From Candidatus Scalinduaceae bacterium (GTDB lineage Bacteria; Planctomycetota; Brocadiia; Brocadiales; Scalinduaceae): 64,000 bases of DNA. This document shows positions 2,583 through 34,361 of this stretch, one piece after another (within the stretch, counting starts at the first letter, position 1; each line of letters starts with the position of its first letter). The stretch lies in the NCBI GenBank assembly GCA_046759445.1, contig JBHICG010000001.1, positions 1-64,000 on the forward strand, read 5' to 3'. Under the pieces are notes generated by a model. It worked only from the letters and a program-made list of their open reading frames with translations. It did no database searches and was not told where the DNA came from. Position numbers and translations under genes: made by a program.

Positions 2583-2585
2583 AGG

Positions 2586-2750
2586 TTAATAAAATTTCTT
2601 TCCCCAGACATGCTCACAGATGGTCTGAGCAAGTAAACCAAGATGTTTTCTCATCTCATCAATCTCTTTGTTCGTTAAATCAGGCATCTTTAAGATGCGC
2701 CGGTATTTCTCATAAATGTCGACCTTTTTGTTTTTGCCTCTACTGCTCAT
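2586..2750 (-). CDS. 54-aa hypothetical protein (not in ORF track)
   Basis: MSSRGKNKKVDIYEKYRRILKMPDLTNKEIDEMRKHLGLLAQTICEHVWGKKFY; fills the gap between the XRE and Rep genes in a tightly packed operon. Confidence 0.7.
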   Translation of the reverse strand: MSSRGKNKKVDIYEKYRRILKMPDLTNKEIDEMRKHLGLLAQTICEHVWGKKFY

Positions 2751-3051
2751 TTTGATCTTCTTTCTTCTCCTTTGCCTTTAAGACCCTCTCTTCTCTTTTT
2801 CGTAGATCAGCCTTAAGTAACCTCATTAGGTCAATAAACAGGGCATCCACCAGTGTTCGGTAAAGCAGGCTTAATTTAAAGATATTCAGTGAGCTCGGCA
2901 GGCATGCACCTTTCTCCCATCGGGATATCATGCTTGTGCTCCTTAGACCCAAAATCTTTGCCACATCCCTTTGCTTGAGGCCACTGATTTTCCTATACCT
3001 CCTGAGACAGTTAGGTATACTTTTGTAATTAATATCCTTCACTTTTCCCAT
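2740..3051 (-). CDS. XRE-family HTH regulator
   Basis: LRRYRKISGLKQRDVAKILGLRSTSMISRWEKG. Confidence 0.9.
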   Translation of the reverse strand: MGKVKDINYKSIPNCLRRYRKISGLKQRDVAKILGLRSTSMISRWEKGACLPSSLNIFKLSLLYRTLVDALFIDLMRLLKADLRKREERVLKAKEKKEDQNEQ

Positions 3052-5589: not shown

Positions 5590-6002
5590 AAGTCACAGCG
5601 ACAATAGCACTATCTAATACTAAGACGAATTAGGCTAATGAACTATCCTTTGAAAAGGATTTTAAAGAAACCACCCTTTTGGGTGGTAATAGGTTTATGT
5701 CAAAGAGTAATGATATTTCTTCTTGATTTTCTTAGTTCGTAACTTTAGTCTTTTACTTTAAAAAGGCATTTCAACGGTTGGCCAATAAGCATTAATTCAT
5801 ATTTCAATTCGTGACGTGATCTTGAAAACAAGTTCATCATAACAAAGATTGTAATTATATATAAGCACTATAATGTTAATTATTTATTTTCAGACTTTCC
5901 AAAAGACAAATCCAATTGTCAAGAGGTTGATGAAAGATAAATACTCACTATTTACTACAATAAAAAGAAATGTTAGGCAAGAAAAATAAAATCATTAATA
6001 AA

Positions 6003-14188: not shown

Positions 14189-15766
14189 TTATCTCTTTCC
14201 CACCAAAGACTCAACTAACCCTTTAATTACCATATACTGTTCTGAAAGGGTAAAGTTAATAATCTGTTCGAAAACATCCTCTTTGGTGACCCCAGTAGGA
14301 TGATTTTCGAACACTCTTCCTATATCTTCTTTGAGTAGAAATGAGAAAGGAGAGTTCAGTTTTACATCTACTATCGCCTTATTTTGCACATAAATCTTGT
14401 CAAAGACAGCCTTAATGAGATTCTTTCTCTGTTCATAGTTGAACCTCTGATGGAGATATAAGAGCATACTGGCCACTGTGATACACTTATCAAGAAAATC
14501 CAAAGGATCATCATAGTCCACTTCAAGTTGACTGAGTCTTGATTCTGCCTCTTTCTTTTTCTCTGTATATTTTTTATCCATCCTTTCATAGATATCCCTT
14601 CGAACTTTCCCTTCTAACATCTCATCTAATAGTTTAATCTCCTTATCTTCCAAGTCTTCAATGATTTTTTTTGAGTTTTTTATCTCCTTTTGCGCGATTT
14701 TCTTTCTCTTCTTAGCAATCTCCTGCATCTCTACCTTCAAAAGCTCTAAAAGCTTTTTGGATGGTTGTAATCTTTCATAAAGTGCCTCTAATTGACTGTC
14801 AAGGAGCTTTACAGGGGTATAGGGTTGAGAGCATTTCTCTTTGTGTATATTAGGCAGACAGCGATAATAACTTCCTCTAGGGTGGATTTCACCTGTTAAC
14901 TTTCTATTACAGAACTGACAATAAGTAATACCTCTTAAGAGGAATTCTAATTTTCCTTTCTCTCCTGTATCCACACTCCTTTTCTTCAAAACCTCTTGTA
15001 CCCGGTAGAATAGATCTTTAGGAATAATAGCTTTGTGTATTCCCTTGTACTCCTTTCCCTGCCATACCAGCCTGCTGATGTAGAATCTTTTTGTTAAGAG
15101 TTTCTTCATTAATTCTGGACTGTAAATTCTGCCGTATCTTGTCTTCAGCCCTCTTGAATGCATTTCCTCAGCTAGGGTATTAAGCGAATAATTGCCAGTC
15201 GAAAAAAGCTCAAAAGCCTGTCTGACTAAGGGAACTGTCTTTTGGTCAGGCAGATGCTTGCTTCGCCCGTCCTCTCCTTTGATACTTTTGTAGCCAATAG
15301 GAGGCTTGTGGGGCCACTCTCCTTTTTTGAGTTTAGCCAGATTAGACTTCTTGATCTCCTCCCCTAGGTTGGCACTATACCATTCAGAGATACTAGCAAT
15401 AATATTTTCAAGGAGATGTCCTACAGGATTATCGTCAAAAGGTTCTGTGACCGAGGCAAGCTTAATCCCTTTCTGTTTTAGGACGGCCTTGATAGTAGCA
15501 TAGTCTATAAGATTTCTGGCCAAACGGTCTATCTTATGGACAATAACTATGTCTACACCTTTGTTTCCCTTACAATGTTGAATAAGGTTCTTTAATTCGG
15601 GACGATTTGCTGTTGTAGCTGATTCACCTTCATCAACATAATGACCAACAACCTTCCAACTATTCCTTTTGGCGTATTCTCTCATTGCTTCAATCTGGGC
15701 TGGTATGGAGAGGTCTTTTTGTGCTTGTTTGTCCGTAGAGACACGGGCATAGAGAAGGCAATTCAT
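14189..15766 (-). CDS. Large serine recombinase
   Basis: YARVST, VHKIDRLARN, recombinase domain, Zn ribbon YCQFC...YYRC, coiled coil. Confidence 0.95.
   Translation of the reverse strand: MNCLLYARVSTDKQAQKDLSIPAQIEAMREYAKRNSWKVVGHYVDEGESATTANRPELKNLIQHCKGNKGVDIVIVHKIDRLARNLIDYATIKAVLKQKGIKLASVTEPFDDNPVGHLLENIIASISEWYSANLGEEIKKSNLAKLKKGEWPHKPPIGYKSIKGEDGRSKHLPDQKTVPLVRQAFELFSTGNYSLNTLAEEMHSRGLKTRYGRIYSPELMKKLLTKRFYISRLVWQGKEYKGIHKAIIPKDLFYRVQEVLKKRSVDTGEKGKLEFLLRGITYCQFCNRKLTGEIHPRGSYYRCLPNIHKEKCSQPYTPVKLLDSQLEALYERLQPSKKLLELLKVEMQEIAKKRKKIAQKEIKNSKKIIEDLEDKEIKLLDEMLEGKVRRDIYERMDKKYTEKKKEAESRLSQLEVDYDDPLDFLDKCITVASMLLYLHQRFNYEQRKNLIKAVFDKIYVQNKAIVDVKLNSPFSFLLKEDIGRVFENHPTGVTKEDVFEQIINFTLSEQYMVIKGLVESLVGKR
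14265..14313. repeat. Putative att (attP-like) site: imperfect inverted repeat around a tRNA-3'-end-like core
   Basis: tgttcgaaaacatcct - ctttggtgaccccagt - aggatgattttcgaaca; minus-strand core TGGGGTCACCA. Confidence 0.6.
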
Positions 15767-16257
15767 GAAAGAGTATTAATTGAATTAAGATATGACTTAG
15801 TGGATAGTGGATATTTATTCAAGCATAGATGAAAATAAAGTCAATGCCTGATAAGGTGGTATATGATGGGAGAATTTGCTGAAAGAAGTGATTTTGGTGC
15901 GCCCTGGTATACAACGTTAGAACTTTTTTTGAGAGGTTGAGTGAGGAAGCTGGTATTGTTAGAGACAACTTGGCTAAGTTGAAAGGAATCCAATCTAATA
16001 GAGTCCGCTCATTGAAGTTCTGTGCAATCGAAGAATAGATTTTAAAAAATAATTGATGTTTTAGATCGCCTTGTTTAACATGTATATGTAAAAGTAATTG
16101 AGTTAGGGAAAAAATTGCAACCTGATAGTTTGAGCGATGAAGAAATAAGAAAGATATTTGAGCAGCATATAGAGCTTAATATATTAAGTTACATTGATCT
16201 CTTTTTTCTTGTGGTTATTTCGTTATACAATTATATTGTGGGCAAGGGGGGAAACGA

Positions 16258-17097
16258 ATGAATGATGAAACCTATGAACATAAAATAATCGCGAGGCTTA
16301 TTGTGTCGATTGCAATAGTAGCAATTATTGCACTTATTGTTGTTTATGTATATACGGAGTATAATGAAAAATATCGTATTTACAAACTATTATATAATGC
16401 GATTCCAAGTGCAGTAGTTGCTTTAGCTGCAACACCGATTTTATATTTTTTATTTATAAAAAGAAGATTTATGTTTTCAAAATCAAATGTAAATCTTGAT
16501 AAAGATATTATCAGTAATAAAATTATAAAAGAAATATCTATGGAAAGATTCTCACAAATAATTAATTTTCACGAATCCTATCGCCATATAGACTGGCATA
16601 AACTCTTAAAGGAAAGTAGTTCAACTATTGATATAATTGTTTACTACTACGATTCTTGGGTTAATAGTAATTATGACGATATTACTTCGTTCTTTAGAAA
16701 ACCAGGTACTTCCATGAGAGTTTTTGTAGCTAACCCTAATGATTCTTTTATTTTTTCTACAATACACCGACTTTTCCCAGATTCTGGAAAAGAAGCTATA
16801 AAGGAAAAAGTTTCCAAAACAGGAGAGCGTTTAGCAAAAGCATTGAAGACAGCAGGTGGAGATTCTGAAAGACTTGAGTTTTATTATGTACCTCATATAC
16901 TAAATTACTCAGCACAATGTATAGATGGAAAAATTCTCATTCTCTCAATTTTTGAAATGTTTCGCGAATCAAGAATTGATTCCCCTGCTATATTAATCGA
17001 CCTAAGCAAATCCAAGCATATAACTAACTTTTGGCACAAGGAATTAAAAGGCATTCTAAACGAGTCGGAAAAAGTGGATATTAAGTTAAGTAGCTAA
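16258..17097 (+). CDS. 2-TM protein with C-terminal DUF5919/PLD-like alpha-beta domain
   Basis: Two N-terminal TM helices; IDWHKLLKESSSTIDIIVYY...MRVFVANP pattern. Confidence 0.6.
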   Translation: MNDETYEHKIIARLIVSIAIVAIIALIVVYVYTEYNEKYRIYKLLYNAIPSAVVALAATPILYFLFIKRRFMFSKSNVNLDKDIISNKIIKEISMERFSQIINFHESYRHIDWHKLLKESSSTIDIIVYYYDSWVNSNYDDITSFFRKPGTSMRVFVANPNDSFIFSTIHRLFPDSGKEAIKEKVSKTGERLAKALKTAGGDSERLEFYYVPHILNYSAQCIDGKILILSIFEMFRESRIDSPAILIDLSKSKHITNFWHKELKGILNESEKVDIKLSS

Positions 17098-17136
17098 AAA
17101 CACATTAACTCAACCATCAGTGGATTTTATCTTAAA

Positions 17137-17163
17137 AAAGGAGATGCCTTTGACATCTCCTTT
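17137..17163. terminator. Terminator between convergent genes
   Basis: Stem aaaggagatg / catctccttt with A and T tracts. Confidence 0.7.
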
Positions 17164-17185
17164 GTTCCTTTCTACCTTTTTGTTT

Positions 17186-18214
17186 CTAAAAAGAACTTCT
17201 CTCCATAAGGGATAAAGCTCTATCCCCATTTCTCTCTTCATCTAAATTCTTAAACTTCTCTCTTGGAAGGGCTATCAATTTGCCGCCCAGTCTCTCAAGT
17301 TCAATACTTTCCTCCCAACTCTCCTCCATCTGTGCTGCCCTGGTCACGGCATTGGCAATGCCATATTTATCATACTCAGGTTCTGCCCCAAAGGCCATAA
17401 GGATGTTTTCCTTCTGTGTCTCACTCAACCGGTAATGTTCAACAACATTGTTTATCACTCTCTGGGGATTATTGATCTTAATCTCTGTCGTCTCCCGTAA
17501 GGTCTGGATTATATTCCCAAACTGCCCAAAGAGTTCCCTGATAGATCTTCTTATAGAAAGGTAAACCACCTCATCAAGCTCGCCGTCTCCATTGCCAAGA
17601 TGTACCTGTCTGGTCTTAAACTCTTCAATGACCATTCCATTGGAACACTGAACTCTAAATAGTCTCGGTTCAATCCTTAACGCCTTGTGTCCAGTTTCAG
17701 AATTAGTAAGGAGAAACCCTCCGATTAACAGGTCGTCTTTGTGTCTGACAAAGTCTCTTAACCTATTGCTCTTTACCTTGACATTCACCTCTATCTCAGA
17801 GAGAAAGCAATCCTCTACTTCAGCATTATGGGCCTGTAGCTCGTTCAAAGAACAGTAAAGGATATCAAGGTGATCAATGACCTTGTATCTGTCACTGAGT
17901 AGGGCCCTGACAGAGCCATCAAGTCCCCGAATAAAAAAGTCTTTTTCAGCCTTCTTTATCCATGTATTTACGTTCCTGGCCAGAAGCTCAGGGGACTCGC
18001 TTTCCATCTTATGGTAGTACTTTGTTGGTATTTCCAGCCTTTCGGCTATCTGACTGTGACAAGGCTTGGTGATTGAAAAATGGTTATCACCGTTGATTCG
18101 AAACCCTACCTGATTTTCTGACAATACCATCTCTAATTGAGATGAATTGATCCTCTTATCCCACTTGAGTGGTTTTTGCCTTTCCAGTTCTTCAATTAAA
18201 GTCTGTAATTTCAT
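17186..18214 (-). CDS. DUF932-like mobile-element protein
   Basis: RALLSDRYKVIDH, GFLLTNSETGH and RVQCSNGM motifs. Confidence 0.8.
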   Translation of the reverse strand: MKLQTLIEELERQKPLKWDKRINSSQLEMVLSENQVGFRINGDNHFSITKPCHSQIAERLEIPTKYYHKMESESPELLARNVNTWIKKAEKDFFIRGLDGSVRALLSDRYKVIDHLDILYCSLNELQAHNAEVEDCFLSEIEVNVKVKSNRLRDFVRHKDDLLIGGFLLTNSETGHKALRIEPRLFRVQCSNGMVIEEFKTRQVHLGNGDGELDEVVYLSIRRSIRELFGQFGNIIQTLRETTEIKINNPQRVINNVVEHYRLSETQKENILMAFGAEPEYDKYGIANAVTRAAQMEESWEESIELERLGGKLIALPREKFKNLDEERNGDRALSLMERSSF

Positions 18215-18386
18215 CTCTCATACTCCTTTCTGGATTTGGTTGTTTAGGTTCAGTCTCTGTACCCTCCATTCCATCTAAGACATTCCCTAAAATCTCATTG
18301 ACCAAGGTGGTCATATAAATGCCTCTTGCCTTGGCTATTTCATAAATCCTGGGAATCAACTCAGGATTTATCTTTGGACTGTACAT
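18192..18386 (-). CDS. Small RHH-like DNA-binding protein
   Basis: MYSPKINPELIPRIYEIAKARGIYMTTLVNEIL; SD ggaggg. Confidence 0.65.
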   Translation of the reverse strand: MYSPKINPELIPRIYEIAKARGIYMTTLVNEILGNVLDGMEGTETEPKQPNPERSMRDEITDFN

Positions 18387-18518
18387 AGCTCCCTCCTAAT
18401 ATTTGTTTTTTAATGTACCATTGTTTTTGGCAGAAAGTATCTATCTCCAGTGTAAGGAAGCTATGGAGAAACAAAAAGGAGGGTATATTTACCGCTTGAG
18501 TCAAATACACCTTAGCCC

Positions 18519-18547
18519 TTGACAACCATCCATAACTCACTTAAACT
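18519..18547 (+). promoter_or_regulatory. Sigma70-type promoter of TA operon
   Basis: TTGACA - 17 nt - TAAACT. Confidence 0.65.
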
Positions 18548-18660
18548 GTAAATAGTTAAGGGTACATTTAGGGTCGATAGAATCCTGTGTAGGAGGGTAA
18601 AATAAAGGGCTTATGCTAAAATATCAATTAACAAAATTTATAAAAGGAGGAACAAAGAAA

Positions 18661-18933
18661 ATGGTAAAAAGGGTGAATCTTGACAGCGTCGATGAAAAGA
18701 TAAGAAAGTTTTTAAAGAAACTAAAGGTAGAGGAAGATCAGTATATCTTGGAAATATCAGGTAAGCCTTTAATCGGTGTGGTTCCACCTTGGCAGGTGGG
18801 AAATGTAAACCAGAAAAAAGCTGATCTTCTCTCACTGCTAAAGGATGTCTGGGCAAAAACCAGTGACATTCCTGAAGAAAAGGTTGAAAAAGAAGTAGAG
18901 GATGCAGTAAAGGCAGTGAGGAAGAGCCTATGA
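18661..18933 (+). CDS. Antitoxin (Phd/YefM-like)
   Basis: YILEISGKPLIGVVP; ATGA overlap with the PIN toxin; SD aaggagg before MVKRV. Confidence 0.75.
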   Translation: MVKRVNLDSVDEKIRKFLKKLKVEEDQYILEISGKPLIGVVPPWQVGNVNQKKADLLSLLKDVWAKTSDIPEEKVEKEVEDAVKAVRKSL

Positions 18934-19361
18934 TTAGGGCTGTGCTTGACACCAATGTCATTGTTAGTGGAGTCATAAAAGAAAATGGGGTACCAGGGAA
19001 ACTATTAAAGTCTTTTTTAGAGGAGAACAAATTTCTTTTAATAACATCATTGGAAATTTTAAGAGAAGTAGCTTTAGTTCTGAAATATCAAAAAATACGA
19101 AAGATTCATGGATGGAGTGATGAAAAGATAGTAGCATTTCTTTTAGGACTCCATGCAGTTAGTTTAGTAACAGAGGGTAAGGTTAACGTTGAGGTGGTTA
19201 AAGACGACCCTGATGACAATAAGTTTGTCTGTTGTGCTCTCGAAGGAAACGCTGACTACATTGTAACTGGTGATGCTCATTTAAAACAATTGGGGGAATA
19301 TAAAGGGATAAAGATCATTACTCCCCGCTCTCTCGAAGAGAAATTAAAGGCCAACTTATAA
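18930..19361 (+). CDS. PIN-domain toxin (VapC-like)
   Basis: AVLDTNVIVSG...E...DPDDNKF...YIVTGDAHL. Confidence 0.92.
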   Translation: MIRAVLDTNVIVSGVIKENGVPGKLLKSFLEENKFLLITSLEILREVALVLKYQKIRKIHGWSDEKIVAFLLGLHAVSLVTEGKVNVEVVKDDPDDNKFVCCALEGNADYIVTGDAHLKQLGEYKGIKIITPRSLEEKLKANL

Positions 19362-19557
19362 ATCGGTTGGCTTTTTTTAGGTTAAATTTTAAGATTGTCC
19401 ACTGTTTGAAGGGGTTTGTTTTTTATAGCTTGTATCAAATTAGCCTGCTTAAACATTTTTACCCATATCCCTTAAACTGTAAATATATAGTACAAGTGAT
19501 AAAATATAAAGGTTTATGAGAGGATACAACTCAACAATTAAAGAAAGGGAGTCAAAA

Positions 19558-19797
19558 ATGGGAAGAACGATTAAGGTAAGATTTTCCAAGGGAGTAATCA
19601 AGCCTTTAGAGAAGGTTGATGTAGCTGAAGGAAAGGAGATTGCTGTTACAATAAAGAATCTAGGGGAAAAAGAGAAAGTTAGAAAAGCCCTCAAAATTCC
19701 GCTTCACTTGGTTAAAGCAGAAACGCTTTTGAAATATACAGGATTAATTTCTATTGGTGGTGATGCTGTAAAGGAGTCTAAAAACTATGATAAGTAA
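19558..19797 (+). CDS. AF2212/DUF104-like antitoxin
   Basis: TIKVRFSKGVIKPLEKVDVAEGKEIAVTI. Confidence 0.85.
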   Translation: MGRTIKVRFSKGVIKPLEKVDVAEGKEIAVTIKNLGEKEKVRKALKIPLHLVKAETLLKYTGLISIGGDAVKESKNYDK

Positions 19798-19813
19798 AGT
19801 TATTATCGATTCT
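19787..19813 (+). pseudogene. Truncated VapC-like toxin stub (MISKVIIDS)
   Basis: SD aaggag at 19771-19776; ATG overlaps the antitoxin end; PIN beta1-Asp motif, followed directly by the SD of the next antitoxin. Confidence 0.6.
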
Positions 19814-19827
19814 AAGGAGGGTCAGAC

Positions 19828-20064
19828 ATGGCCAAAAAAATTAGAGCACGATTTTCGAATGGCGTATTTGAACCTTTAGAAAAAATAAATATACTAGAAG
19901 GCGAAGAATTGGAAGTGACCATTGAGGAAAAGCCCACTAAAGCTGAGGATGAGTCTTTTCTTAAAGCCGCAGGAAGTTGGAAGGGGTTAATTGACGCAGA
20001 AGAAATGATTAAAAACATTTATGCTGACCGCCTCATATCCACTAGAAAGGAACCGAGATTATGA
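19828..20064 (+). CDS. AF2212/DUF104-like antitoxin
   Basis: KIRARFSNGVFEPLEKINILEGEELEVTI...AAGSWKG. Confidence 0.88.
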   Translation: MAKKIRARFSNGVFEPLEKINILEGEELEVTIEEKPTKAEDESFLKAAGSWKGLIDAEEMIKNIYADRLISTRKEPRL

Positions 20065-20087
20065 AACCCTCTTTTCTTATTGATACA
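20061..20087 (+). pseudogene. Truncated VapC-like toxin stub (MKPSFLIDT)
   Basis: ATGA overlap with the antitoxin; PIN LIDT motif; the frame then runs antisense into the ATPase gene. Confidence 0.65.
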
Positions 20088-20102
20088 GAAAAGATTAAAA
20101 AA

Positions 20103-21431
20103 TCAAGAAAACAACCTTCCTTGATTGGTTTGTTTTTTTTCCTCAAAATGGCTTCTATAAAGGATTTCCTTTTCCACTTCCTTCCTTGGCCTTCCATATC
20201 TCTTTCTCGACAGCTCAATAAGCTCATCTTTATAAGGCATCCCTCTTTCAGGCGGAAGAAGGGTGGTTGCGCTGAAGGGCTTTGAGGTAACCCCGTCAAT
20301 CATTAATTTTAGATAGATGTGATAGTTGGGAAGGTTGACCAGATCAGCCTCTCCAAAGACTGGATAGAATTCTCCGGACAGATATTTAGCATCCTCAGCC
20401 CCTATTCTAAAGGAGATGATGGTTCCCACATTGCCAAAGACGGCTGCCCTTATCTTTTCATCAAGCTGTTCAATGTATTGGTGTGTAAGGGTCAGACTCA
20501 ATCCATATTTCCTTGCTTCAGACAGAATATCGGCAAAAGATAAGGTGAGAAAATTGTGGAACTCATCCACATAGAGATAAAACGACTTTCTCTTGTCCTC
20601 AGGCAGCTCTGCCCGGCTCAGTGCAGCCAATTGAATCTTGGCAACCATCATAGCCCCCAAAAGAGAGCCGTTGTCTTCTCCGATCTTACCCTTGGCCAAA
20701 TTGATTATCAGAATCTTTCCCTCATCCATCACCTTCCTCAGATCAAAAGTGTTTTCCCTCTGGCCTACTATGTTCCTTAATGGGATACTGGTTAAAAACT
20801 GGCCTATCTTATTCAAGATAGGAGAGACGGCCTGTGACCTAAACCAGGCCGAATACTTTTCAAACTCAAAGAGCCAAAACTCCCTTACATGCTGGTTGGT
20901 GATGCTTTCTAATACCATCCCTCTGAATTCCTTGTCGGTTAAAAGTCTCGGCATATCCAGGAGGGTGCTTTTTGGATATTCCAGGAGGGTTAAGATGGAG
21001 TTTCTCAGGATATGCTCTAGTCTAGGCCCCCAGAACTCAGACCAAACCTTTTTTAAGACCGAGATAAGGCCTGAAGCTACCAAATGGTGATAGTCTAGAT
21101 GAACCTCCTCTAAAGGATTAAAGGCAACGGGATACTTTATATCCGCTGGGTTGAAGTATATAACGTCTTCAATCCTGCTTTTTGGAATAAAGCTAAGAAT
21201 ATTTTCAGCCAAGTCCCCATGCGGGTCAATCAGTGCTATCCCATTTCCTTCCTTAATATCTGAGATGACCATGTTTTCAATCAAGGTAGACTTGCCAACC
21301 CCGGTCTTTCCAACCATATACATATGGCCTCTACGGTTCTTCTCCTTAATCCCGAATCTTTTTCTAATATCCCGGTAGTTGGTTACGGCAAAGGGGGTGA
21401 TCTGATCTTTGTCATTGTCTAATCTATTCAT
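20103..21431 (-). CDS. VirD4/TraD-like coupling-protein ATPase (HerA/DUF87-like)
   Basis: Walker A GKTGVGKST, LIDPHGD, Walker B LYVDEFHNF, SEARKYGL, AVFGNVGT; no TM region. Confidence 0.88.
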   Translation of the reverse strand: MNRLDNDKDQITPFAVTNYRDIRKRFGIKEKNRRGHMYMVGKTGVGKSTLIENMVISDIKEGNGIALIDPHGDLAENILSFIPKSRIEDVIYFNPADIKYPVAFNPLEEVHLDYHHLVASGLISVLKKVWSEFWGPRLEHILRNSILTLLEYPKSTLLDMPRLLTDKEFRGMVLESITNQHVREFWLFEFEKYSAWFRSQAVSPILNKIGQFLTSIPLRNIVGQRENTFDLRKVMDEGKILIINLAKGKIGEDNGSLLGAMMVAKIQLAALSRAELPEDKRKSFYLYVDEFHNFLTLSFADILSEARKYGLSLTLTHQYIEQLDEKIRAAVFGNVGTIISFRIGAEDAKYLSGEFYPVFGEADLVNLPNYHIYLKLMIDGVTSKPFSATTLLPPERGMPYKDELIELSRKRYGRPRKEVEKEILYRSHFEEKKQTNQGRLFS

Positions 21432-22855: not shown

Positions 22856-24361
22856 TTACTGAGTCTCCGCTCTAATCCGCTCGTCGGGGTCCAGTAGCTG
22901 TCCGGGGTCACCTGAATTGCGCCAAATATGTGTCATTTTCCATTTCACATAATCTGGTAGTTGGTCTTTAGCATTAGGACCTGAGGTAACTACAACCGAC
23001 TGTCCAGGTTGCAATTGTACGTCTCTTGTGAATGTAAACCGTTGATTACCCTGTACGCTGATGAGTGTCCAACCTCTGAGGTTTACCTCGCTACCACCTA
23101 CATTGGTGATAGTTGCCTCTTCAGTAACTAGATTTACTTTTAGCGTTAGCGCAGGTCCACTTACTGATCCCGTAGTATCATCTGATTCAAACCACACTGG
23201 CGCCAACCAAGCACGATCTACTTCGACACCATCATCGTCTGTTTCTGTAATTTTGAAAAAGAAGTACTGATTGCCGCCATCGTATGAAATTCCGTCTAAG
23301 GTGACCGTACCGTTGCCAGAAGCCTCGAATTGTGCAACAACGTCAGCCTCTTCAGGTCCACCTAAATGATCAGCGTACACGTCTATAGTGTAGAGAGCAA
23401 AAGGCTCGTCATCGTCGTTCAAATCTATTTCAATGCTTAGTTCACTTCCCGGATTGGGTACTTGGTTACCTTGGAACCTCGTTCCCACTAGCTCACCGTT
23501 GACTTTAGCAATAATTTGCAGGTTGCGGTCTTCGGTAGCATACACGTGACGAGCCCGCAACGCCTTTAAAATGTTAGACTTAGTCAATGATGTTGTTACG
23601 ACACCCGTCCGGGTATCAGCAGCACTACCCCAGTTTGTGCGGTGGTTGTCTTGATCCGCTGTGGGAGCAACGTGAAGGCCAAGGTTAAGGTAGCGCAAAA
23701 ATTCACTCTCTGAAGGTTGACCAGGGTGAGGTCTATCGTGGGAAGGACCGTTTATAATGTTGATAAGTTGAGCATGGGCGTCCAACTTGGTGCGCCAAGT
23801 TGTAAAGCTACCAAAATCGTCAATACCATACTCTTTATCGTTGGGACTACTACTTTGAGCTGGGTGATTGAGTAGAATCAGGGCAGGCTGGCCTTGGGAG
23901 TCTAAATGGCTAGGCAACCATGTGTTCAAAAGATCATCCCACTCACCGTTGGGAACATCACTTGTGTCAATAACTGCTCCTACCTCGAAGACGTTGGCGT
24001 GGTTACCGGAACTGATACTGGAGAACTCTTGTCCATATATTGCGACGAAACGACCATCTTGTGTAAATCGTTCTGCTGTAGAGATGAGTGAGTCTGGGAA
24101 ACTGCCCGAGTAGAGCTGGTGGTTAGTGGCAATCCGGCTTGGGGCACGAGGATGGTTATGCTCTGTAATCGCTAGGAAATCTAAGCCTGCTATGTCGCGT
24201 GCGTGGGTGTATGCCATCTCCGGTGTGCCTGAGCCGTCGCTGTAGGAAGTGTGAGAATGGAGATTGCCAAAGTAGACTTGAAGGGATTGAGCCCAGGCCA
24301 CTTGATAGACAGTCATCATGGGAAGAACAACAAGGATCGTGAAAATGGTGTAGAGTTTCAT
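22856..24361 (-). CDS. Secreted PHP-fold (CehA/McbA-like) metallohydrolase with lamin-tail domain
   Basis: Signal peptide; GNLHSHTSYSDG, AITEHNH, NHP, DNH; LTD motif VNLRGWTL...IWRNSGD. Confidence 0.85.
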   Translation of the reverse strand: MKLYTIFTILVVLPMMTVYQVAWAQSLQVYFGNLHSHTSYSDGSGTPEMAYTHARDIAGLDFLAITEHNHPRAPSRIATNHQLYSGSFPDSLISTAERFTQDGRFVAIYGQEFSSISSGNHANVFEVGAVIDTSDVPNGEWDDLLNTWLPSHLDSQGQPALILLNHPAQSSSPNDKEYGIDDFGSFTTWRTKLDAHAQLINIINGPSHDRPHPGQPSESEFLRYLNLGLHVAPTADQDNHRTNWGSAADTRTGVVTTSLTKSNILKALRARHVYATEDRNLQIIAKVNGELVGTRFQGNQVPNPGSELSIEIDLNDDDEPFALYTIDVYADHLGGPEEADVVAQFEASGNGTVTLDGISYDGGNQYFFFKITETDDDGVEVDRAWLAPVWFESDDTTGSVSGPALTLKVNLVTEEATITNVGGSEVNLRGWTLISVQGNQRFTFTRDVQLQPGQSVVVTSGPNAKDQLPDYVKWKMTHIWRNSGDPGQLLDPDERIRAETQ

Positions 24362-24468
24362 TTGAGCCTCCTATATATTTATTCTTACACAAAAGAGTTG
24401 AAAGGGTTAAAGCTGTGATTTCATATTTTTTTCACACAATCTCTCAGCCTACTACTAACAATTAAGCT

Positions 24469-25587
24469 TTATAATAGTTCTAATTCCAATGCCTGTAGGA
24501 TTCGGTTTAGACCAATGCCATAGGTCAAGTCCTCTACCCCTCTACTTCTTCCAATATCTGTAGGCCAGCCTCCCCAAAGTAAAGCTACAGGGCGGTCTTT
24601 GTTTGTATCATCAGTATCAATCAAGATAGCAGAGCCTGAATCACCAGGCGCACTAAAAACTGTACTTGTGCCGCGCGGAGCAATTAAAAGGTCAGTATAA
24701 AAGTTTGCAGGCTCCACATTAATATTGCGGTCTATAAATTCCTCTTCTCCACCAATTCCATAACCAAATGCTATTATCGTACCCAACTGAAGGCCTGTGG
24801 TTCGCCCTAGTTTTTTCACAGGCATGCCGATTATGTCCATTGAATCCAAATCGATTTCAAATGGAGAACCCATGGGACCAATTCCCAGCACATCATTTCG
24901 CATATGACTGCCCAAACCTTCATCTGCAACTGCAAATGCTGAATCTGTTCGCACATACGCAAACTTCTCATCAAGGCCTTTGAGCCATTCATCATCCGGC
25001 CTATGTTCCATGACCCTGCGCGTAACGCCAACGCGTATTGCATTCTGGCGGTATCCTGGAATGTAAAGTGAGTGTCCAGAATGAAGTCCAACATGTTGAT
25101 TAGTTAGAAAGCCGATTAATTTATTATCATTTTTTGATCTAACAATGTATCCAAGGGTGCCAACAAAAGTCTCCAATTGCCCGCTTGAAACGTCAGCAGC
25201 GCCAACTTGTACACCAGGTCCTATAAAATCCATTTTGCCGTTTAACCATTGCAAAGTTTCTATAATTTCTTGGTTTTCTGCGCTTAGTGAAGGAGTATTT
25301 TTAGTTTTGTTTGGCACTGTCGTTACAATTACATCAGTAGGAGACTCCAGCTTACCGTCACGTGAAGTTAGTTTTGAGGGAATTACAGCATTTTCTGAAA
25401 GAAGTGCTCTGTGGATCTTATGAGGAACGTACACAATGATGCACGGATCGCCAGTAAGCTTATCAGTTGCATCAAAGTTTTTTAATCCTAGGGCAGTACC
25501 CTGAGTGCCAACAATAGCATTTAAAAAATCACGCCTGTCTGCACGAATCTGCGCAAGCTCTTTTAGAGTTGTTGCTTGTTTTGCCAT
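24469..25587 (-). CDS. Trypsin-like serine protease (Nal1-like)
   Basis: Triad motifs LTNQHV, TDSA and PGDSGS; KLGRTTGL; N-terminal CIIVYV...TDV prodomain; no signal peptide. Confidence 0.85.
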   Translation of the reverse strand: MAKQATTLKELAQIRADRRDFLNAIVGTQGTALGLKNFDATDKLTGDPCIIVYVPHKIHRALLSENAVIPSKLTSRDGKLESPTDVIVTTVPNKTKNTPSLSAENQEIIETLQWLNGKMDFIGPGVQVGAADVSSGQLETFVGTLGYIVRSKNDNKLIGFLTNQHVGLHSGHSLYIPGYRQNAIRVGVTRRVMEHRPDDEWLKGLDEKFAYVRTDSAFAVADEGLGSHMRNDVLGIGPMGSPFEIDLDSMDIIGMPVKKLGRTTGLQLGTIIAFGYGIGGEEEFIDRNINVEPANFYTDLLIAPRGTSTVFSAPGDSGSAILIDTDDTNKDRPVALLWGGWPTDIGRSRGVEDLTYGIGLNRILQALELELL

Positions 25588-25599
25588 TTCCTTCTCCTT

Positions 25600-25926
25600 T
25601 CATGTAAAATGTCTTCCATAATTAGCAGCTAGCTCTGCTATTTTTGAAGCAACATCTATAGATACTCTCAATGTTCTCGCTAATTTCTCAATTTTAGTGT
25701 TATCCTTCTTGGATTGTTCTATGAGGCATCTGATTTCTTCTGATTCTTCAGAGCTAAAAGTATGAAAATCGTATTTAGTCCTTCGCAGAAGTTTATTAAT
25801 TGTCACAATTTTAGACAATGCCTCATTAATTTCCTCTAGGGCATCTTCATCGACAGTTCCCTCAAGTTTCTGATTCAATTTCTCCGCCCATCCTTCAATA
25901 ATAGTCAATAAATCCGTATCGTCCAT
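25600..25926 (-). CDS. Hypothetical alpha-helical protein
   Basis: 108-aa ORF 12 nt upstream of the protease. Confidence 0.7.
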   Translation of the reverse strand: MDDTDLLTIIEGWAEKLNQKLEGTVDEDALEEINEALSKIVTINKLLRRTKYDFHTFSSEESEEIRCLIEQSKKDNTKIEKLARTLRVSIDVASKIAELAANYGRHFT

Positions 25927-26078: not shown

Positions 26079-27434
26079 TTAACCATGGTCTTGAATATTC
26101 TGGAAAAACTGTGAATTGAGTTTTCCTTCTTCTTGTAGAATCATAATCCCTGCAAGAGTACCCTCTATCGTAGCCTTGAATACCTCACAAAATACTTGTG
26201 TAGGAGGTCCCAATTTTCTCGATTCAGAAAAATTGATGCCATAACAGCTAAAACAGAGATTTCCAGCCCAACAGCTGCTACATTCTCTAAAGTGAGATTT
26301 TGGTTTAGTTTTAAATGTATTGCATATCAGATTAAAGTTTTCAGAATTGTTATCAGTATTTGCGCCGATCTTTCCCAACACATATCTGTCATCAAGTAAT
26401 AAATAACATGGATAGACAGAACCATTGGGCATAACTGTATATGATGATTGCGCAGCAGGGCAGATATATTTTCTTGTACCTCGTCTAGCTATTGTTGAAA
26501 ATACCTTAAAAACATATGATAATACAATCGGATTATCAGTAGCAAGAGAGGTGAGGGAATAAACCGCGGCTTCTTTAAATTGCTCACTCAACTCAAGTAC
26601 ATTTTCATCTTGGGCATAAAAATTTGCCATAAAATCTGTACCATGTTCCAGTGAAATAGCACAATTTTTCACGCCCAGAGCTTGGAAATAGCGAATCAGA
26701 TCTACTATTGAAAAATTATGCTTTAAGTGTTCCCTTCCGTAAGTCGCTTCGACTCCAAATTTCATCTGGCGAGCGATCAGATTCTCTATGGATGAACAGA
26801 CCAGATAGTGTGTCGGCTCGTTGGTGAGCGTTCTTCGCAGTCTGTCATGTATTAATGAAGGCCCGTCAATACTTACCGTAGGTACAATACGGTGTTCCCG
26901 CAGGAAATCAGCAATATCACCAGTGATTCTAGTGCCATTTGTAATTAACATGAAAGCCTGAAGAGTTACTTGCCTGCGCTTCATAATTTTGATTAAATCT
27001 TTAATACAATCTATTGCGAGTAGTGGTTCTCCTCCGAATAGAATTATTTTTTTGACCTTTTTTTGGTGATGTTCAAAAAAATCGAAGGTTTGATCAATAA
27101 ATTCCGGAGTCAACGTCTGGCTGCCAAGATAGGAGGTTTTTGCAAAGCAGTAATTGCAGTTTAAATTGCATCTGTTTGTAATGAGAAGATTTAGTTCTAC
27201 TCCATCTGTTTCAGTCAAAACAGAACTTTTAAAATTAAAAGCTTTATCTTTAAAAATAGATTTTAATTTTGCGTTATACGGATCGTCTTCTTTTAATACA
27301 AATAGTTTCTTATCTATTTTTAGAAAACTCTTATAAACGTCATAAGGAACAGTAACTAATGAATTAGAATGTTTTTCAAAAGCAAACTTTGTTGTTAAAT
27401 ATGAAAATGTGTGAAAAAGATAATGCGCCATCAT
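26079..27434 (-). CDS. Radical SAM/SPASM peptide maturase-like protein
   Basis: CNLNCNYC, FGGEPLL, SIDG; SPASM CPAA...VYPC...CSSCWAGNLCFSC...FC; RRE-like N-terminus. Confidence 0.93.
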   Translation of the reverse strand: MMAHYLFHTFSYLTTKFAFEKHSNSLVTVPYDVYKSFLKIDKKLFVLKEDDPYNAKLKSIFKDKAFNFKSSVLTETDGVELNLLITNRCNLNCNYCFAKTSYLGSQTLTPEFIDQTFDFFEHHQKKVKKIILFGGEPLLAIDCIKDLIKIMKRRQVTLQAFMLITNGTRITGDIADFLREHRIVPTVSIDGPSLIHDRLRRTLTNEPTHYLVCSSIENLIARQMKFGVEATYGREHLKHNFSIVDLIRYFQALGVKNCAISLEHGTDFMANFYAQDENVLELSEQFKEAAVYSLTSLATDNPIVLSYVFKVFSTIARRGTRKYICPAAQSSYTVMPNGSVYPCYLLLDDRYVLGKIGANTDNNSENFNLICNTFKTKPKSHFRECSSCWAGNLCFSCYGINFSESRKLGPPTQVFCEVFKATIEGTLAGIMILQEEGKLNSQFFQNIQDHG

Positions 27435-27538
27435 TTCCCTTTTTTAGTCCATTATCCCTCAAAGCATTTTGGAATATAAAAAAAGAGCAAGCAAAGAGTA
27501 CTTATTTACCTTAATCCAGTTAAGGTTATTTCATTTAT

Positions 27539-27739
27539 TTACGTTGAACCATTGCAGCAATTATTACACGCTACTTTTTCAAGCAATTGAGCTGCTCTCG
27601 AAAGTCCTGAGGCGTCAAGCTCTTTTATTTTATCTATTCTAAGAGCAACCGCTTCAATCACGCCTCCTATCATACCCCTTGTTACAGCTAATGCATTTCT
27701 CTCAGCTTCTTCTGGTTTAAGCAAAGTTAGGTCTGCCAT
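27539..27739 (-). CDS. Putative RiPP precursor peptide with Cys-rich C-terminus
   Basis: SD aaggagg; 66 aa ending ACNNCCNGST; directly upstream of the rSAM gene on the same strand. Confidence 0.75.
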   Translation of the reverse strand: MADLTLLKPEEAERNALAVTRGMIGGVIEAVALRIDKIKELDASGLSRAAQLLEKVACNNCCNGST

Positions 27740-28394
27740 GTCTGTTCCTCCTTTCTCTCTTGCTTGCTCTATTATTGATATAGTTTTTCAGAATTAAATA
27801 ACGCAGTTTGCACTGTTGTCTAATAAACAGTAAATATTATTTAATACCATCCCTTCCCTAATTTATAATAGAGTTGAATTGTTCTCACCATGCATTTATT
27901 AGGACTCTCTTTTTATTATTTTTTTGTTTGCAAAACTTCTACTTCTTCAAATCCAAGCACTGCATAATATCCAAATGATGGAGCCGTAGCAGTTAACTTT
28001 AACGGATCAAAATCTTTCGTTGATGTTTTAGGGGAACAAAAGCTTTTACTACTTTAATCTGTAGCATATAAATCCTTGTACGTTTAAAGGTCCTTTACTT
28101 TTCATAGTCTGATCGCCAATGTTTTACCCTTATTGCGAGTGATTAAATTGTTATGAAGCATAATAGGGCAAATATGATGCCGAAATTTTTATGAAAACTG
28201 CAATTTTTTAACTGCTCACTAGTTAAACACTTATGAAATCTAACCAAATTCCAATATTACATTTTGTTATGAACCTATAACATTTTTTGTTATTTTGTTA
28301 TAATGAATTAATAAAGCTCTATTTCCTCAGATTAATGCAAGTTTTAAAATCCTTGTGTTTAATCCTCAATAATCAAACAAGTCATTTATCAATT

Positions 28395-29261: not shown

Positions 29262-29726
29262 ATGGATACGGTTACGAACAATAACATAAAATTCCTTAGG
29301 CTTGCTCTGAAAGAAGCTCGAAAGGGGTACGAAGAAGGAGGCGTCCCGGTAGGAGCCGTAATTGTTGAAAACAGTAAGGTAATAGCATCAGGTTATAACA
29401 AGCGAGTGCAAAAAGGTGATCCAATCGCCCATGGCGAAATAGATTGCGTTAGAAATGCGGGACGTAGGTCGAGATACGACAAAGTCACATTATACACCAC
29501 CCTTGCTCCATGCATGATGTGTTCAGGAACGATTGTTCAGTTAGGGATAAAGAAAGTCGTAATAGGAGAAAATGAGAACTTTTCTGGAAATATAAAGTTT
29601 CTTGAAGATCACGGTATTGAAGTGCAATTAGTAAATGATACTGAATGCAAAAACCTAATGAGTAAATTCATTAAAGAACACCCAGATTTGTGGGACGAGG
29701 ACATTGCAGGGAACAAAAATGTTTAA
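29262..29726 (+). CDS. Zn-dependent nucleoside/cytosine deaminase
   Basis: HGE and PCMMC motifs; C-terminal W-x-EDI of FCY1-type cytosine deaminases. Confidence 0.9.
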   Translation: MDTVTNNNIKFLRLALKEARKGYEEGGVPVGAVIVENSKVIASGYNKRVQKGDPIAHGEIDCVRNAGRRSRYDKVTLYTTLAPCMMCSGTIVQLGIKKVVIGENENFSGNIKFLEDHGIEVQLVNDTECKNLMSKFIKEHPDLWDEDIAGNKNV

Positions 29727-30183
29727 CATTTACAGCCAACTCCCAGCTGGTCGTAAAGATGTGGAAAAGCATATTGAAGCACTCTCAAAGATGACACGTG
29801 ACAAGGACCATAGAGCATTGTTTGATCATCTATATGACTGTCTTTCAATACTAGATGGTAAGTCTGCTTCCTTGTTATCGTTCAATTCAATAATTATTGC
29901 AGTCTTCGCAATTTTTATGACAACTACGCTTAGCAATTTTGAGTTTATAATTGCAAATATAGGCATAATACTGGTATTAGTATCATCTATATTGCTATTG
30001 GTTGTTGTATGGATACATTGGTCGACAACGAAGGATTTTGATGATCTAAAGCTACATGCGATCACTCTCCTATACGTTAGACGCACGAGGACAATAAAAT
30101 ACAGGTTTTCTTGGTACTTTTCTATATGTTCCATAGGTTCACTCGTGTTGTTTATTATTGTAAGGTTTGTTGCACGTATTTAA
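29719..30183 (+). CDS. 3-TM membrane protein
   Basis: ATG overlaps the deaminase stop; LDGKSASLLSFNSIIIA followed by TM helices. Confidence 0.75.
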   Translation: MFNIYSQLPAGRKDVEKHIEALSKMTRDKDHRALFDHLYDCLSILDGKSASLLSFNSIIIAVFAIFMTTTLSNFEFIIANIGIILVLVSSILLLVVVWIHWSTTKDFDDLKLHAITLLYVRRTRTIKYRFSWYFSICSIGSLVLFIIVRFVARI

Positions 30184-31825: not shown

Positions 31826-33343
31826 ATGGAAAAGGTAAAACCGGTTGGTATCTGGATTCGTGTATCTACCGAAGACCAGGCCAGGGGTGAAAGCCCAGAA
31901 CATCATGAGAAACGTGCCCGTTTCTATGCTGAATCTAAAGAATGGAAGGTGAAAGAAGTTTATCACCTTGAGGCGGTCAGCGGCAAATCGGTCATTGGCC
32001 TGCCTGAAACCCAACGGATGCTTAAGCATGTTAGAAATGGTCATATCACAGGTCTCATCTTTTCCAAGCTTGCCCGCTTAGCCCGCAATACAAGAGAGCT
32101 TCTCGAATTTGCTGATATCTTTCAAGAATATAATGCAGATCTAATCTCTCTTCAGGAATCAATTGACACATCAACCCCGGCGGGACGGCTCTTTTACACC
32201 ATGATTGCAGCTATGGCCCAGTGGGAAAGAGAGGAGATTTCTGAACGTGTGGCTGCCTCTGTTCCTATCAGGGCCAAACTCGGTAAACCCATTGGTGGTC
32301 AGGCCTCATATGGCTACCAGTGGAAAGACAGAAAATTAATCCCTCATCAAGATGAGGCCCCCATAAGAAAATTGCTCTATGAACTCTTCTTAGAGCACAA
32401 GAGGAAAAAGACCGTAGCTCGAATCCTCAATGAGAGAGGATACAGGACACGAAATGGATCAAAGTTTACAGATACAACTGTTAAGAGACTCCTGCAAGAC
32501 ACCACAGCCAAGGGAATGCACAAAGCCAATTACACTAAGAGCCTTGGTGATAACAAAAAATGGATAGTGAAGCAACAGGAAGATTGGGTTTTTACTAAGG
32601 TAGAACCGATTGTCTCTGAGGAGTTGTGGAATCAGTGCAACTCTATCTTAGATGAGCAAGAGAAAAATAATAAGCGACCGTCTCGCAATGTCGTTCATCT
32701 CTTCACAGGTTTTGCCTTCTGCGCTTGCGGTCAGAAGATGTATGTTCCTTCCAATTCTCCGAAGTATATCTGCCGGAAGTGTCGAAACAAGATAGGCACA
32801 GAAGACCTAGAAGAAGTATTCCACAAACAGCTCAAGACCTTCTTTTTCTCACCTAACGAGATTTCTAATTACTTAAATAAATCTGATAATGTAATAAAAG
32901 AAAAAGAAGAACTTCTTAAGTCACAAGAACAGGAAAAACACAAAATACAGATAGAAATGGATAAAGTATACAAGCTATATATAGATGACCAGATCACACC
33001 AGAAGGCTTTGGCCACAAATACAAACCTTTAGAAGAAAGACTAAAGCAGACAGAAGATCAGATACCAGAGCTCCAGGCTGAGATTGATTTCCTTAAGATT
33101 CAGTACCTTTCAAGTGATCAGATCCTGAACGAGGCCAAAGACCTATACAGCCGTTGGCCAGAACTTGAATATGAAGAAAAACGAAAAATCGTTGAAAGCA
33201 TTACTGATAAAGTTATTGTCGGAAAAGAAGATATAGCAATTAACCTCTGCTACCTACCTTCCTCTTCTGAAATCATGGCAGGTGGGCAACGCAACTTCAC
33301 GGATTCATTGCACACACCAACATTATCTCTGCTGGAAAAGTAA
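31826..33343 (+). CDS. Large serine recombinase (comM-targeting)
   Basis: [19 protein letters not shown], Zn ribbon CACG...CRKC; the 3' end reads through the junction into antisense comM. Confidence 0.95.
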
Positions 33344-34361
33344 CTGAACTCGTTGCCCTTGAAATAGTAATCTTGTCCGTCTCTAATGGTTGTCGCAATA
33401 CCTCCAGTGTTTTTCTGTTAAATTCCGGCAATTCATCTAGAAAGAGAACTCCATGATGGCTTAGGCTAATTTCCCCTGGGTGTGGATTACTGCCACCCCC
33501 CACTAATCCTGCAGTGCTAATAGTATGATGAGGACAGCGGAAAGGCCTTAAGGCTACCAATGATTGGTCTGAATCCAAAAGCCCTACTGTGCTATATATC
33601 ATAGTCGTTTCAAGAGCCTCCTCAAGGGTTAATTCAGACATTATTGTAGGGAGCCTTTGTGTCAGCATCGTCTTCCCCGAACCCGGTGGTCCAATCATAA
33701 GCACATTATGATTACCAGCAGCAGCAACCGTAAGCGCACGTTTAACATGCTCTTGACCTTTAACATCCAAAAAGTCCATCTCATAATGGGACAACCTATT
33801 AAAAACATCCTCAAGGTCTACGGAAAATGGAGAAATAGATAATTCATTTGTTAGAAAGCTTACCGTATCAGATAATGTCTTTACGGGAATAACATCTATA
33901 CCATCTACAATAGCTGCTTCGGCTGCATTATCGGCAGGAAGAATTAATCCTTTCAATCCTGCCTCTTTACATTTCAGCGCCATTGATAAGCAACCCCTTA
34001 CCTTTCTTACCCTTCCATCCAATGCAAGTTCGCCTATTATGCCATATTCCTGTACCTTGTCTGTTTTTATCTGGTTTGTAGCTACAAGAAGACCAGTTGC
34101 AATTGGCAATTCAAATGACGGACCTTCCTTTTTTCTATCCGCAGGAGCCAGGTTAATGGTGACATTCTTTAAAGGAAATTTGTAACCGCAATTTTTCAGC
34201 GCTGCCTTTACCCTATCTCTACATTCCTTAACTGCTGCGTCAGGTAATCCAATAACTATCGTTGAAGGTAATTGACCTTTTGCAACATACACCTCTATCT
34301 CCAGCATATAGGCTTCAATTCCGTAGACGGCAATGCTTTTTACCTTTCCAAGTCCGGCCAT
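33297..34361 (-). pseudogene. comM: ComM/YifB Mg-chelatase-like ATPase, 5' fragment interrupted by the island
   Basis: ChlI-type N-terminus, [24 protein letters not shown]; stops at CAMNP where CPCG normally follows. Confidence 0.93.

Follow-up and report, generated by a model that had tools for sequence, protein, structure and literature searches.

The stretch analysed here, which we call the window, comprises 64,000 nucleotides of contig JBHICG010000001.1 from a Candidatus Scalinduaceae bacterium, and its reverse strand carries two adjacent genes that appear to encode a small precursor peptide and its modifying enzyme (Table 1). The upstream gene encodes a peptide of 66 residues, MADLTLLKPEEAERNALAVTRGMIGGVIEAVALRIDKIKELDASGLSRAAQLLEKVACNNCCNGST, and the downstream gene a radical S-adenosylmethionine (SAM) protein with a SPASM domain; both lie on the same strand and are separated by 104 bases. 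The only cysteines of the peptide are at positions 58, 61, and 62, inside the final nine residues of its C-terminal end (...EKVACNNCCNGST, that is, CNNCCNGST), and the gene stops two residues beyond Gly64, leaving the core without a follower. An initial annotation made from the DNA letters had described this arrangement of peptide, cysteines, and enzyme, and the coordinates and open reading frames (ORFs) agree with it. No terminator-like sites were found between the two genes, and the 104-base spacer shows no significant fold (z −0.8, with 40 of 200 shuffled sequences folding equally well), providing no evidence for an attenuator.

By itself, the 66-residue ORF is not remarkable in this DNA, which is 35% GC and contains 89 ORFs of at least 30 residues in 10 kb. 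Searches with the peptide alone also revealed little: a word-index search recovered only the query, an exhaustive phmmer search of 1.84 billion representatives recovered the query plus one irrelevant 490-residue protein (E 1.8e-4), the ESM Atlas returned only generic helical look-alikes, and a genome-contig scan with a single protein as query gave no matches. No second copy of the peptide was found in its own genome. The family to which the peptide belongs is thus not visible from the peptide alone and emerged only by way of the relatives of the enzyme.

An alignment-based search in which each species was represented by one genome identified 481 relatives of the enzyme, four of which stand apart from the rest (E 9e-52 to 1e-61; next best 1e-33). 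These come from metagenome-assembled genomes of Terracidiphilus, Lewinellaceae, and Desulfovibrionaceae and from an unclassified bacterium. We read the upstream regions of these four closest relatives, and every one has a small ORF of ≈60 to 75 residues directly upstream of the enzyme gene. The four peptides have in common the leader pattern ..YLGYLDA.LEKKD.I..LSLEELTK.A.., and their cores read ACNNCCNGSTG, AMNNCCNGSTG, ACNGCCNGAG, and ADNGCCNGGGG. Conservation of the peptide beside homologues of the enzyme, as anticipated by the initial annotation, is therefore observed in four of four cases, with a more distant fifth pair in another genome of the phylum (G213, discussed below). A profile of the five peptides, searched against 5.8 billion proteins, yielded 31 clusters including that of the window, and all of the named clusters are annotated as "hypothetical protein." We define the family, which is unnamed, from the four loci and this profile search as NxCCNG peptide/radical SAM pairs.

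The core of these peptides is strikingly uniform. Both the CC dipeptide and the glycine after the core occur in 31 of 31 family peptides, and the residue between them is asparagine in 30 and aspartate in one (P0050). An asparagine two residues ahead of CC is likewise present in 30, the exception being P0063, which reads CSNCCNG. The pattern N-x-C-C-[ND]-G consequently describes 30 of the 31 clusters and corresponds to N59-N-C-C-N-G64 in the window. Conservation of a CxxCC motif in neighboring peptides had been suggested at the outset; the CC part of that motif is universal, whereas its first cysteine is not, since the position of Cys58 is occupied by cysteine in 19 peptides, by aspartate in nine, and by methionine, tyrosine, or asparagine in one each. 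Judged from these alignments, the conserved unit is N-x-C-C-N-G, with a replaceable first cysteine. A six-frame scan for CC[ND]G across 160 loci (1.29 Mb) gave 13 matches, and a leader-like context surrounds the motif only in the four main-family loci.

Within the family, the window peptide is an outlier. It is 30 to 36% identical to the other four peptides in the five-peptide alignment, whereas the leaders of those four are 50 to 67% identical to one another. Among the 30 peptides that match the motif pattern, it is the sole one to lack a follower; the other 29 run on for seven to 19 mostly acidic residues past the glycine. The comparison marks the window copy as a divergent, deep-branching, and follower-less family member. 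To avoid circularity, we excluded it from a second profile built from 25 of the 30 other peptides, with P0040, P0049, P0058, P0060, and P0063 dropped as extended, truncated, or oddly called ORFs. Aligned to this profile with hhalign, the window peptide matches with a probability of 97.6% (E 4.7e-12, 46 columns, 39% identity). Because it matches a profile built without it and occupies the same upstream position beside related enzymes, the small ORF stands above chance, and this comparative evidence identifies it as a real, conserved gene.

We then considered the enzyme. Pfam recognizes both a Radical_SAM domain (E 3.9e-19) and a SPASM domain (E 3.8e-5; 24.3 bits, where the cut-off is 21.5; residues 325–389), and the combination of a CxxxCxxC motif with a C-terminal multi-cysteine motif for two auxiliary clusters places the protein among the SPASM-domain radical SAM enzymes. 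The Cx2Cx5Cx2C spacing singled out in the initial annotation (C385-x2-C388-x5-C394-x2-C397) is common to all seven aligned members of the enzyme's clade. In a tree of 22 homologues, this clade unites the window enzyme with P0004, the other deep-branching member, and five main-family enzymes (support 100/99); the window enzyme is placed as sister to the main family, with weak support (81/32) and with long branches flagged. Its closest relatives are only ≈30% identical. The five best-scoring NCBIfam models are PapB (161.7 bits), nif11 (116.4), QhpD (113.6), SCIFF (107.9), and CcpM (105.4), all far short of their cut-offs; anSME (91), GggB (85.7), and RumMC (70.3) score lower. PapB is also the best-scoring family for all seven clade enzymes, at 121 to 162 bits and below its cut-off. 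PADLOC reports only a generic viperin-like radical SAM similarity.

Structural comparison points to CteB, the SCIFF maturase, as the nearest solved structure. CteB is the best solved relative by sequence (5wgg, E 1.5e-38 in a PDB sequence search) and also ranks first in a Foldseek search with an AlphaFold2 model of the enzyme, with a template modeling (TM) score of 0.73 to 0.80. The model was built from 22 sequences and has a mean predicted local distance difference test (pLDDT) score of 88.6. In VIA-align, residues 4–434 of the model superpose on residues 1–450 of the 5wgg chain with a Z score of 34.2 and a root-mean-square deviation of 2.9 over 394 aligned residues. The second-best structural match, anSME (Z 30.0), aligns from residue 77 only. 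Because the alignment to CteB begins at residue 4 and that to anSME only at residue 77, the N-terminal 76 residues correspond to the peptide-binding domain of CteB.

The initial annotation had described this N terminus as resembling a RiPP recognition element (RRE), RiPPs being peptides that ribosomes make and that are modified after translation. The predicted topology of residues 5–64, three strands followed by helices, and the alignment to CteB are in keeping with this, although the pLDDT is only 55 to 72 over residues 31–80. Pfam finds no family, PqqD and RRE included, in the N-terminal 80 to 93 residues of five of five clade enzymes, even at an E value of 10. The description of the domain as RRE-like therefore holds by predicted fold only.

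A predicted complex of peptide and enzyme places the leader on this domain. When the two alignments are supplied together with SAM and three clusters, the median interface score (ipSAE) of three runs is 0.70, as compared with 0.02 for the best control; of 157 solved complexes 116 attain the mark applied to this score, as do two of 215 mismatched pairs. The runs have at least 58% of their contacts in common, with a partner pLDDT of at least 63. The confident interface joins enzyme residues 25–61, together with 312–318 and 427–448, to peptide residues 17–54, and peptide residues 38–41 pair along the enzyme strand formed by residues 26–29. Six of the seven leader positions that are invariant in the five-peptide alignment fall within this interface (G26, A30, I38, L41, L46, and A50, but not A57). 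The same binding mode is described for the CteA leader, which lies on the N-terminal domain of CteB next to strand 3 (PMC6231123). The model thus supports docking of the conserved leader on the N-terminal domain of the enzyme.

These data also bear on the possibility that the small ORF is no substrate, or even no gene, and that the enzyme acts on something else. The chemistry of the enzyme is only predicted and no expression data were found, which leaves some room for this view; the profile match at E 4.7e-12, the upstream position kept in four of four relatives, the strong ribosome-binding site, and the complex score of 0.70 against 0.02 leave it close to refuted, and we give it very little credence.

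The family nonetheless differs in clear ways from each of the known systems to which it can be compared. CteB of Clostridium thermocellum (PDB 5WGG and 5WHY; TIGR03974), with its substrate CteA, has the arrangement predicted for the window enzyme, with an RRE-like N-terminal domain, a radical SAM core, and a SPASM domain, and in both systems the leader lies, by modeling in our case, on the N-terminal domain beside strand 3; the window enzyme, however, is only ≈21% identical to CteB and scores 107.9 bits against a SCIFF cut-off of 425. SCIFF peptides have six cysteines, whereas the window peptide has three, an NxCCNG core, and no NCBIfam match. QhpD (TIGR03906), which modifies QhpC, is the third-best family at 113.6 bits, but its cut-off of 453 is missed and no amine dehydrogenase genes lie nearby. 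QhpD installs several thioethers between Cys and Asp or Glu in a small polypeptide; kept inside the cell as a subunit of an enzyme, this polypeptide sets a precedent for a non-antibiotic product. The PapB/freyrasin ranthipeptides (NF047865) are the top curated family for all seven clade enzymes; in PapA, however, Cys-X3-Asp motifs are repeated, whereas the motif occurs just once in the window core, which contains neither Asp nor Glu (ACNNCCNGST), and the score of 161.7 bits lies below the cut-off of 340. The thioethers of PapB are described as joining Cys to Asp or Glu (PMC9413430). Finally, the streptococcal NxxcB/NxxcA systems resemble the window in the N-x-x-C of the core, which runs from N59 to C62 (a comparison at the level of the peptides); they are described in an Rgg/SHP quorum-sensing context, and no Rgg/SHP-type neighbors lie beside the NxCCNG cassettes scanned.

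With these systems in mind, we propose the following mechanism. Upon translation of the 66-residue peptide, its leader (approximately residues 17–54) would dock on the RRE-like N-terminal domain, partly as an added β strand, so bringing the C-terminal core to the active site. Reductive cleavage of SAM would then allow a hydrogen atom to be taken from a core residue, and that carbon would be joined to the sulfur of Cys61 and/or Cys62, with the thiol probably bound at the open coordination site of an auxiliary cluster. Asn59 and Asn63, both near-invariant, would supply the likeliest acceptors in their β-carbons, in line with the NxxC type and with the ranthipeptides, in which a radical SAM enzyme joins a Cys sulfur to a carbon other than the α-carbon; the outcome would be one or two very small thioether rings within N-x-C-C-N.

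Thioether formation has been demonstrated for PapB, QhpD, and SCIFF maturases, and several features of the family fit a related reaction. The invariant groups of the core comprise two adjacent thiols, two carboxamides, and one glycine. Since only seven invariant SPASM cysteines serve two clusters, one auxiliary-cluster iron would be free, an arrangement that fits the open auxiliary-cluster site described for CteB, where it is bound by a substrate cysteine (PMC6231123). NxxcB is described as joining Cys to the β-carbon of Asn in NxxC, with Ala, Gln, and Asp also accepted at that position (PMC9389541). In our family, N59-N-C-C62 is itself an NxxC motif, and the sole substitution of N63 is by aspartate. 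On the strength of the curated-family ranking, the cysteine count for an open cluster, the NxxC motif, and aspartate as the only replacement for N63, a thioether to an Asn side chain is the favored form of the chemistry. On balance, we favor the view that the two genes form a cassette whose ribosomal peptide is modified by the enzyme and comes to bear one or two Cys thioethers; that Cys61 and Cys62 carry one or two thioethers to Asn side chains specifically is a tentative refinement, in which our confidence is low. Cyclophane and Lys-Trp chemistries were rejected because the core has no aromatic residue to serve as substrate.

A number of points weigh against this proposal. The product and its thioether chemistry, acceptor included, are inferred; the two sequencing runs that hold the locus are both of DNA, possibly from the source sample, with no RNA run listed. 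The enzyme reaches none of the NCBIfam cut-offs, and radical SAM chemistry is described as not reliably predicted by full-length similarity (PMC10288494). PapB-type acceptors are missing from the window core, with an Asp just before the N59 position in only nine of 31 peptides, and the proposed asparagines are themselves replaced by serine in P0063 (N59) and by aspartate in P0050 (N63). Linking N59 or N63 to C61 or C62 would close rings of just one to three residues, which is unusually tight. The complex model does not place the core confidently, and its good score may in part reflect likeness to the solved CteB-CteA complex. The peptide of the G213 pair ends in HVPNCGGFGCG, a core (PNCGGFGCG) that differs from NxCCNG, and the invariant Gly64 is equally well compatible with an α-thioether.

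This last point underlies the main alternative, in which the same cassette performs sactipeptide chemistry and a Cys sulfur is attached to an α-carbon, most likely that of Gly64. The glycine present after the core in all 31 family peptides would supply the acceptor, Cys-Gly sactionines made by the divergent radical SAM enzyme StsB are described (PMC10288494), and the G213 core is rich in glycine (CGGFGCG). The best-scoring family, however, is a ranthipeptide maturase, PapB, and the sactisynthase models rank lower (GggB 85.7 and RumMC 70.3 bits), a ranking that is weak evidence for chemistry. We regard this alternative as rather unlikely, while placing the Cys-to-Gly α-thioether ahead of any chemistry that leaves the cysteines without a cross-link.

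Such non-cross-linking chemistry could be formation of formylglycine as in anSME, epimerization, or installation of another sulfur group, perhaps yielding a metal-binding or cofactor-like peptide. That anSME is second structurally (Z 30.0), with 91 bits in NCBIfam, is consistent with this idea, as are the vicinal thiols beside carboxamides, which would make a plausible metal site, and the bare two-gene organization of the four main-family loci, where no export gene or obvious leader peptidase accompanies the pair, as would suit an intracellular product. Nevertheless, anSME aligns from residue 77 only and has no counterpart of the N-terminal domain, which here matches that of CteB and is modeled on the leader, and the five top-scoring families are all maturases of Cys-containing peptides. 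We therefore consider modification without a cross-link improbable, and Cys thioether formation remains our preferred interpretation.

The pair also appears to be new to curated resources, in accord with the initial annotation, which had recognized no named family. Neither NCBIfam release 20 nor Pfam has a model that matches the peptide (no NCBIfam family at E 0.01), and the enzyme is claimed by no curated family. The enzymes of the four relatives and P0004 likewise remain below the NCBIfam cut-offs, and their peptides have no meaningful match, with one chance hit at E 0.071. In the literature searched, which excludes subscription journals, the peptide and motif strings (CCNG, NNCCNG, etc.) gave no relevant match. 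None of four motif strings occurs in the supplementary file of PMC10288494; the precursor spreadsheets of that radical SAM-RiPP compendium lay outside the search and may yet include the family. As far as these sequence comparisons go, the NxCCNG pair is an uncurated radical SAM-peptide family with an unusual vicinal-Cys core.

Leader-binding radical SAM/SPASM enzymes are a main source of new peptide chemistry, with reactions that are unpredictable from sequence, and in this family the core is unusually short and strictly conserved and two genes suffice. A product in which both cysteines were linked inside a five-residue span would be a cross-linked peptide motif of unusual compactness, and a product that stays in the cell would join a short list of peptide-derived cofactor-like molecules. 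On present evidence, the family is another uncharacterized member of a large and busy class in which many such families await study.

The distribution of the cassette is sparse. The enzyme clade was found neither in two of two genomes of the same genus nor in 58 other relatives searched (best 1.4e-28), and a metagenome-contig scan with generic radical SAM patterns gave, among the matches listed, only distant enzymes (best 5e-25). A further 400 genomes of the phylum yielded a single match, in G213 (E 2.8e-48), where a 68-residue ORF (L183 2902–3108, minus strand) lies directly upstream of a 454-residue enzyme (1426–2790, minus strand) that is 30% identical to that of the window. The four species found in the scan are a lower bound, as its patterns would also miss the G213 enzyme. 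BLASTP finds no alignment between the G213 and window peptides; hhalign matches the G213 leader to the family at E 2e-4 with a probability of 46%, which makes homology borderline. G213 may represent a third kind of core joined to a related leader, which hints at a wider superfamily with a common leader and varied cores. By the sequence evidence assembled here, the NxCCNG pair itself is a rare two-gene family present in several bacterial phyla. In two of the four main-family loci, a lumazine synthase gene adjoins the cassette, as ribH-nusB upstream in L014 (3399–4747) and as a converging ribH-ribBA pair downstream in L015 (5662–7354); this could be chance or shared ancestry.

No transporter families are matched among the window neighbors scanned between 16.2 and 33.3 kb, many of which have no family match of any kind; the initial annotation, too, had noted the lack of a nearby transporter and had suggested that the product may be intracellular. 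Of 22 flanking ORFs scanned in the four main-family loci, seven match no family, none is common to all four loci, and none belongs to a transporter or RiPP-type protease family. The idea of an intracellular product rests on this absence of transporters, true of the four related loci too, which proves little.

Table 1. Genes and sequence features of the putative NxCCNG cassette and its surroundings, in window coordinates
Feature	Position	Strand	Basis or remark
Precursor peptide gene, 66 aa	27539..27739	-	ORF list; leader ≈residues 1–57, core A57-C-N-N-C-C-N-G-S-T66
Shine-Dalgarno-like GGAGG	27747..27751	-	Read from sequence; seven bases 5' of peptide ATG
Radical SAM/SPASM peptide maturase (putative), 451 aa, CteB-like three-domain	26079..27434	-	Pfam, NCBIfam, PDB search, model
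RRE-like leader-binding domain (predicted), residues 4–76	27207..27425	-	Predicted topology, CteB alignment, complex model
CxxxCxxC motif, C89/C93/C96	27147..27170	-	Invariant in 22 of 22 aligned homologues
SPASM region, seven invariant Cys (C325, C343, C385, C388, C394, C397, C416)	26187..26462	-	Seven-member clade alignment
Acidic protein of 108 aa, no known family	25600..25926	-	152 bases after enzyme gene; Pfam/NCBIfam below cut-off
Nal1-like serine protease, 372 aa	24469..25587	-	Pfam Nal1_C (E 2.6e-33) and NAL1_N; 12 bases after 108-aa gene
Large serine recombinase	31826-33343		Family scan
Large serine recombinase, second	14189-15766	-	Family scan
TraD/TrwB-like coupling protein	20103-21431		Family scan; between recombinases
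yifB/comM, profile positions 3–370 of 499	33231-34337	-	Abuts recombinase gene at 31826

Downstream of the enzyme gene lie genes for an acidic 108-residue protein and, two genes on, a Nal1-like protease that the initial annotation had not mentioned, and the cassette could in principle extend to four genes, with the protease cutting off the leader. All four genes run on one strand, with 152 bases separating the enzyme gene from the 108-residue gene and 12 bases separating the latter from the protease gene; the former gap shows no terminator-like site, and a trypsin-like protease would supply the missing leader peptidase. Such a protease, however, is present in none of the four main-family loci. 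In G011, a genome of the same family, a protease homologue that is 65% identical has neither a clade enzyme nor a homologue of the 108-residue protein beside it (no ORF of at least 60 residues lies in the corresponding place) and is followed by what we read as a staphylococcal nuclease (SNase)-like gene. Since the window protease, too, has a nuclease-type gene after it, protease and nuclease probably form a module of their own. We accordingly think a four-gene pathway distinctly unlikely: it is doubtful that the 108-residue protein is part of the cassette, and the Nal1-like protease is probably a separate module. PADLOC finds no defense-system match for the peptide, the 108-residue protein, or the protease.

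The order of Nal1-like protease and then nuclease-type gene is seen in both genomes, at 22856–25587 in the window and in G011 (L180 789–2613), and may represent a conserved pair. The nuclease-type gene of the window encodes a PHP/CehA hydrolase with a signal peptide and a lamin-tail domain (LTD).

The cassette sits between two large serine recombinase genes. Because it is so flanked, with a coupling protein gene between the recombinases and yifB/comM split at a recombinase, the cassette is cargo of an integrated element. The remainder of yifB/comM (profile positions 344–499) lies on contig C61 at 11066–11530 (L175 1642–1992), beside an XRE-like gene, which suggests, from the sequence, an integrative element inserted in yifB with its other end on contig C61; the beginning of the contig that holds the window may fall within the element. 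The stretch from 14189 to 21431 is mobile-element cargo, possibly of two nested or tandem elements.

A more speculative picture, which we hold to be improbable as a whole, would combine several of these observations. The cassette would yield an intracellular product instead of an antibiotic for secretion, and the two genes would be self-sufficient, with the product being either a tight double-thioether knot across N-x-C-C-N or a metal-binding or cofactor-like group comparable to pyrroloquinoline quinone (PQQ) or mycofactocin. Horizontal transfer would have carried the unit into at least four phyla, an integrative element being its vehicle in the window, and the unit would belong to a wider superfamily with a common leader and docking domain and varied cores (NNCCNG, and PNCGGFGCG in G213).

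Several other genes of the window were recorded in passing. A DUF932 protein is encoded at 17186–18214, and a small ORF with a PIN_3 partner at 18613–19361. At 29262–30183, a cytidine/dCMP-deaminase-like gene (TadA-like, 93.9 bits, sub-cut-off) overlaps by 23 bases with a gene for a multi-pass membrane protein that weakly matches a PycTM-like family (E 5e-4); together the two could form a small defense-type pair on the island. Farther away, at 5970–7490, lies a gene for a 506-residue protein in which an N-terminal PIN_4 domain is the only one recognized, and PVC-type pilus families are also present in the window.

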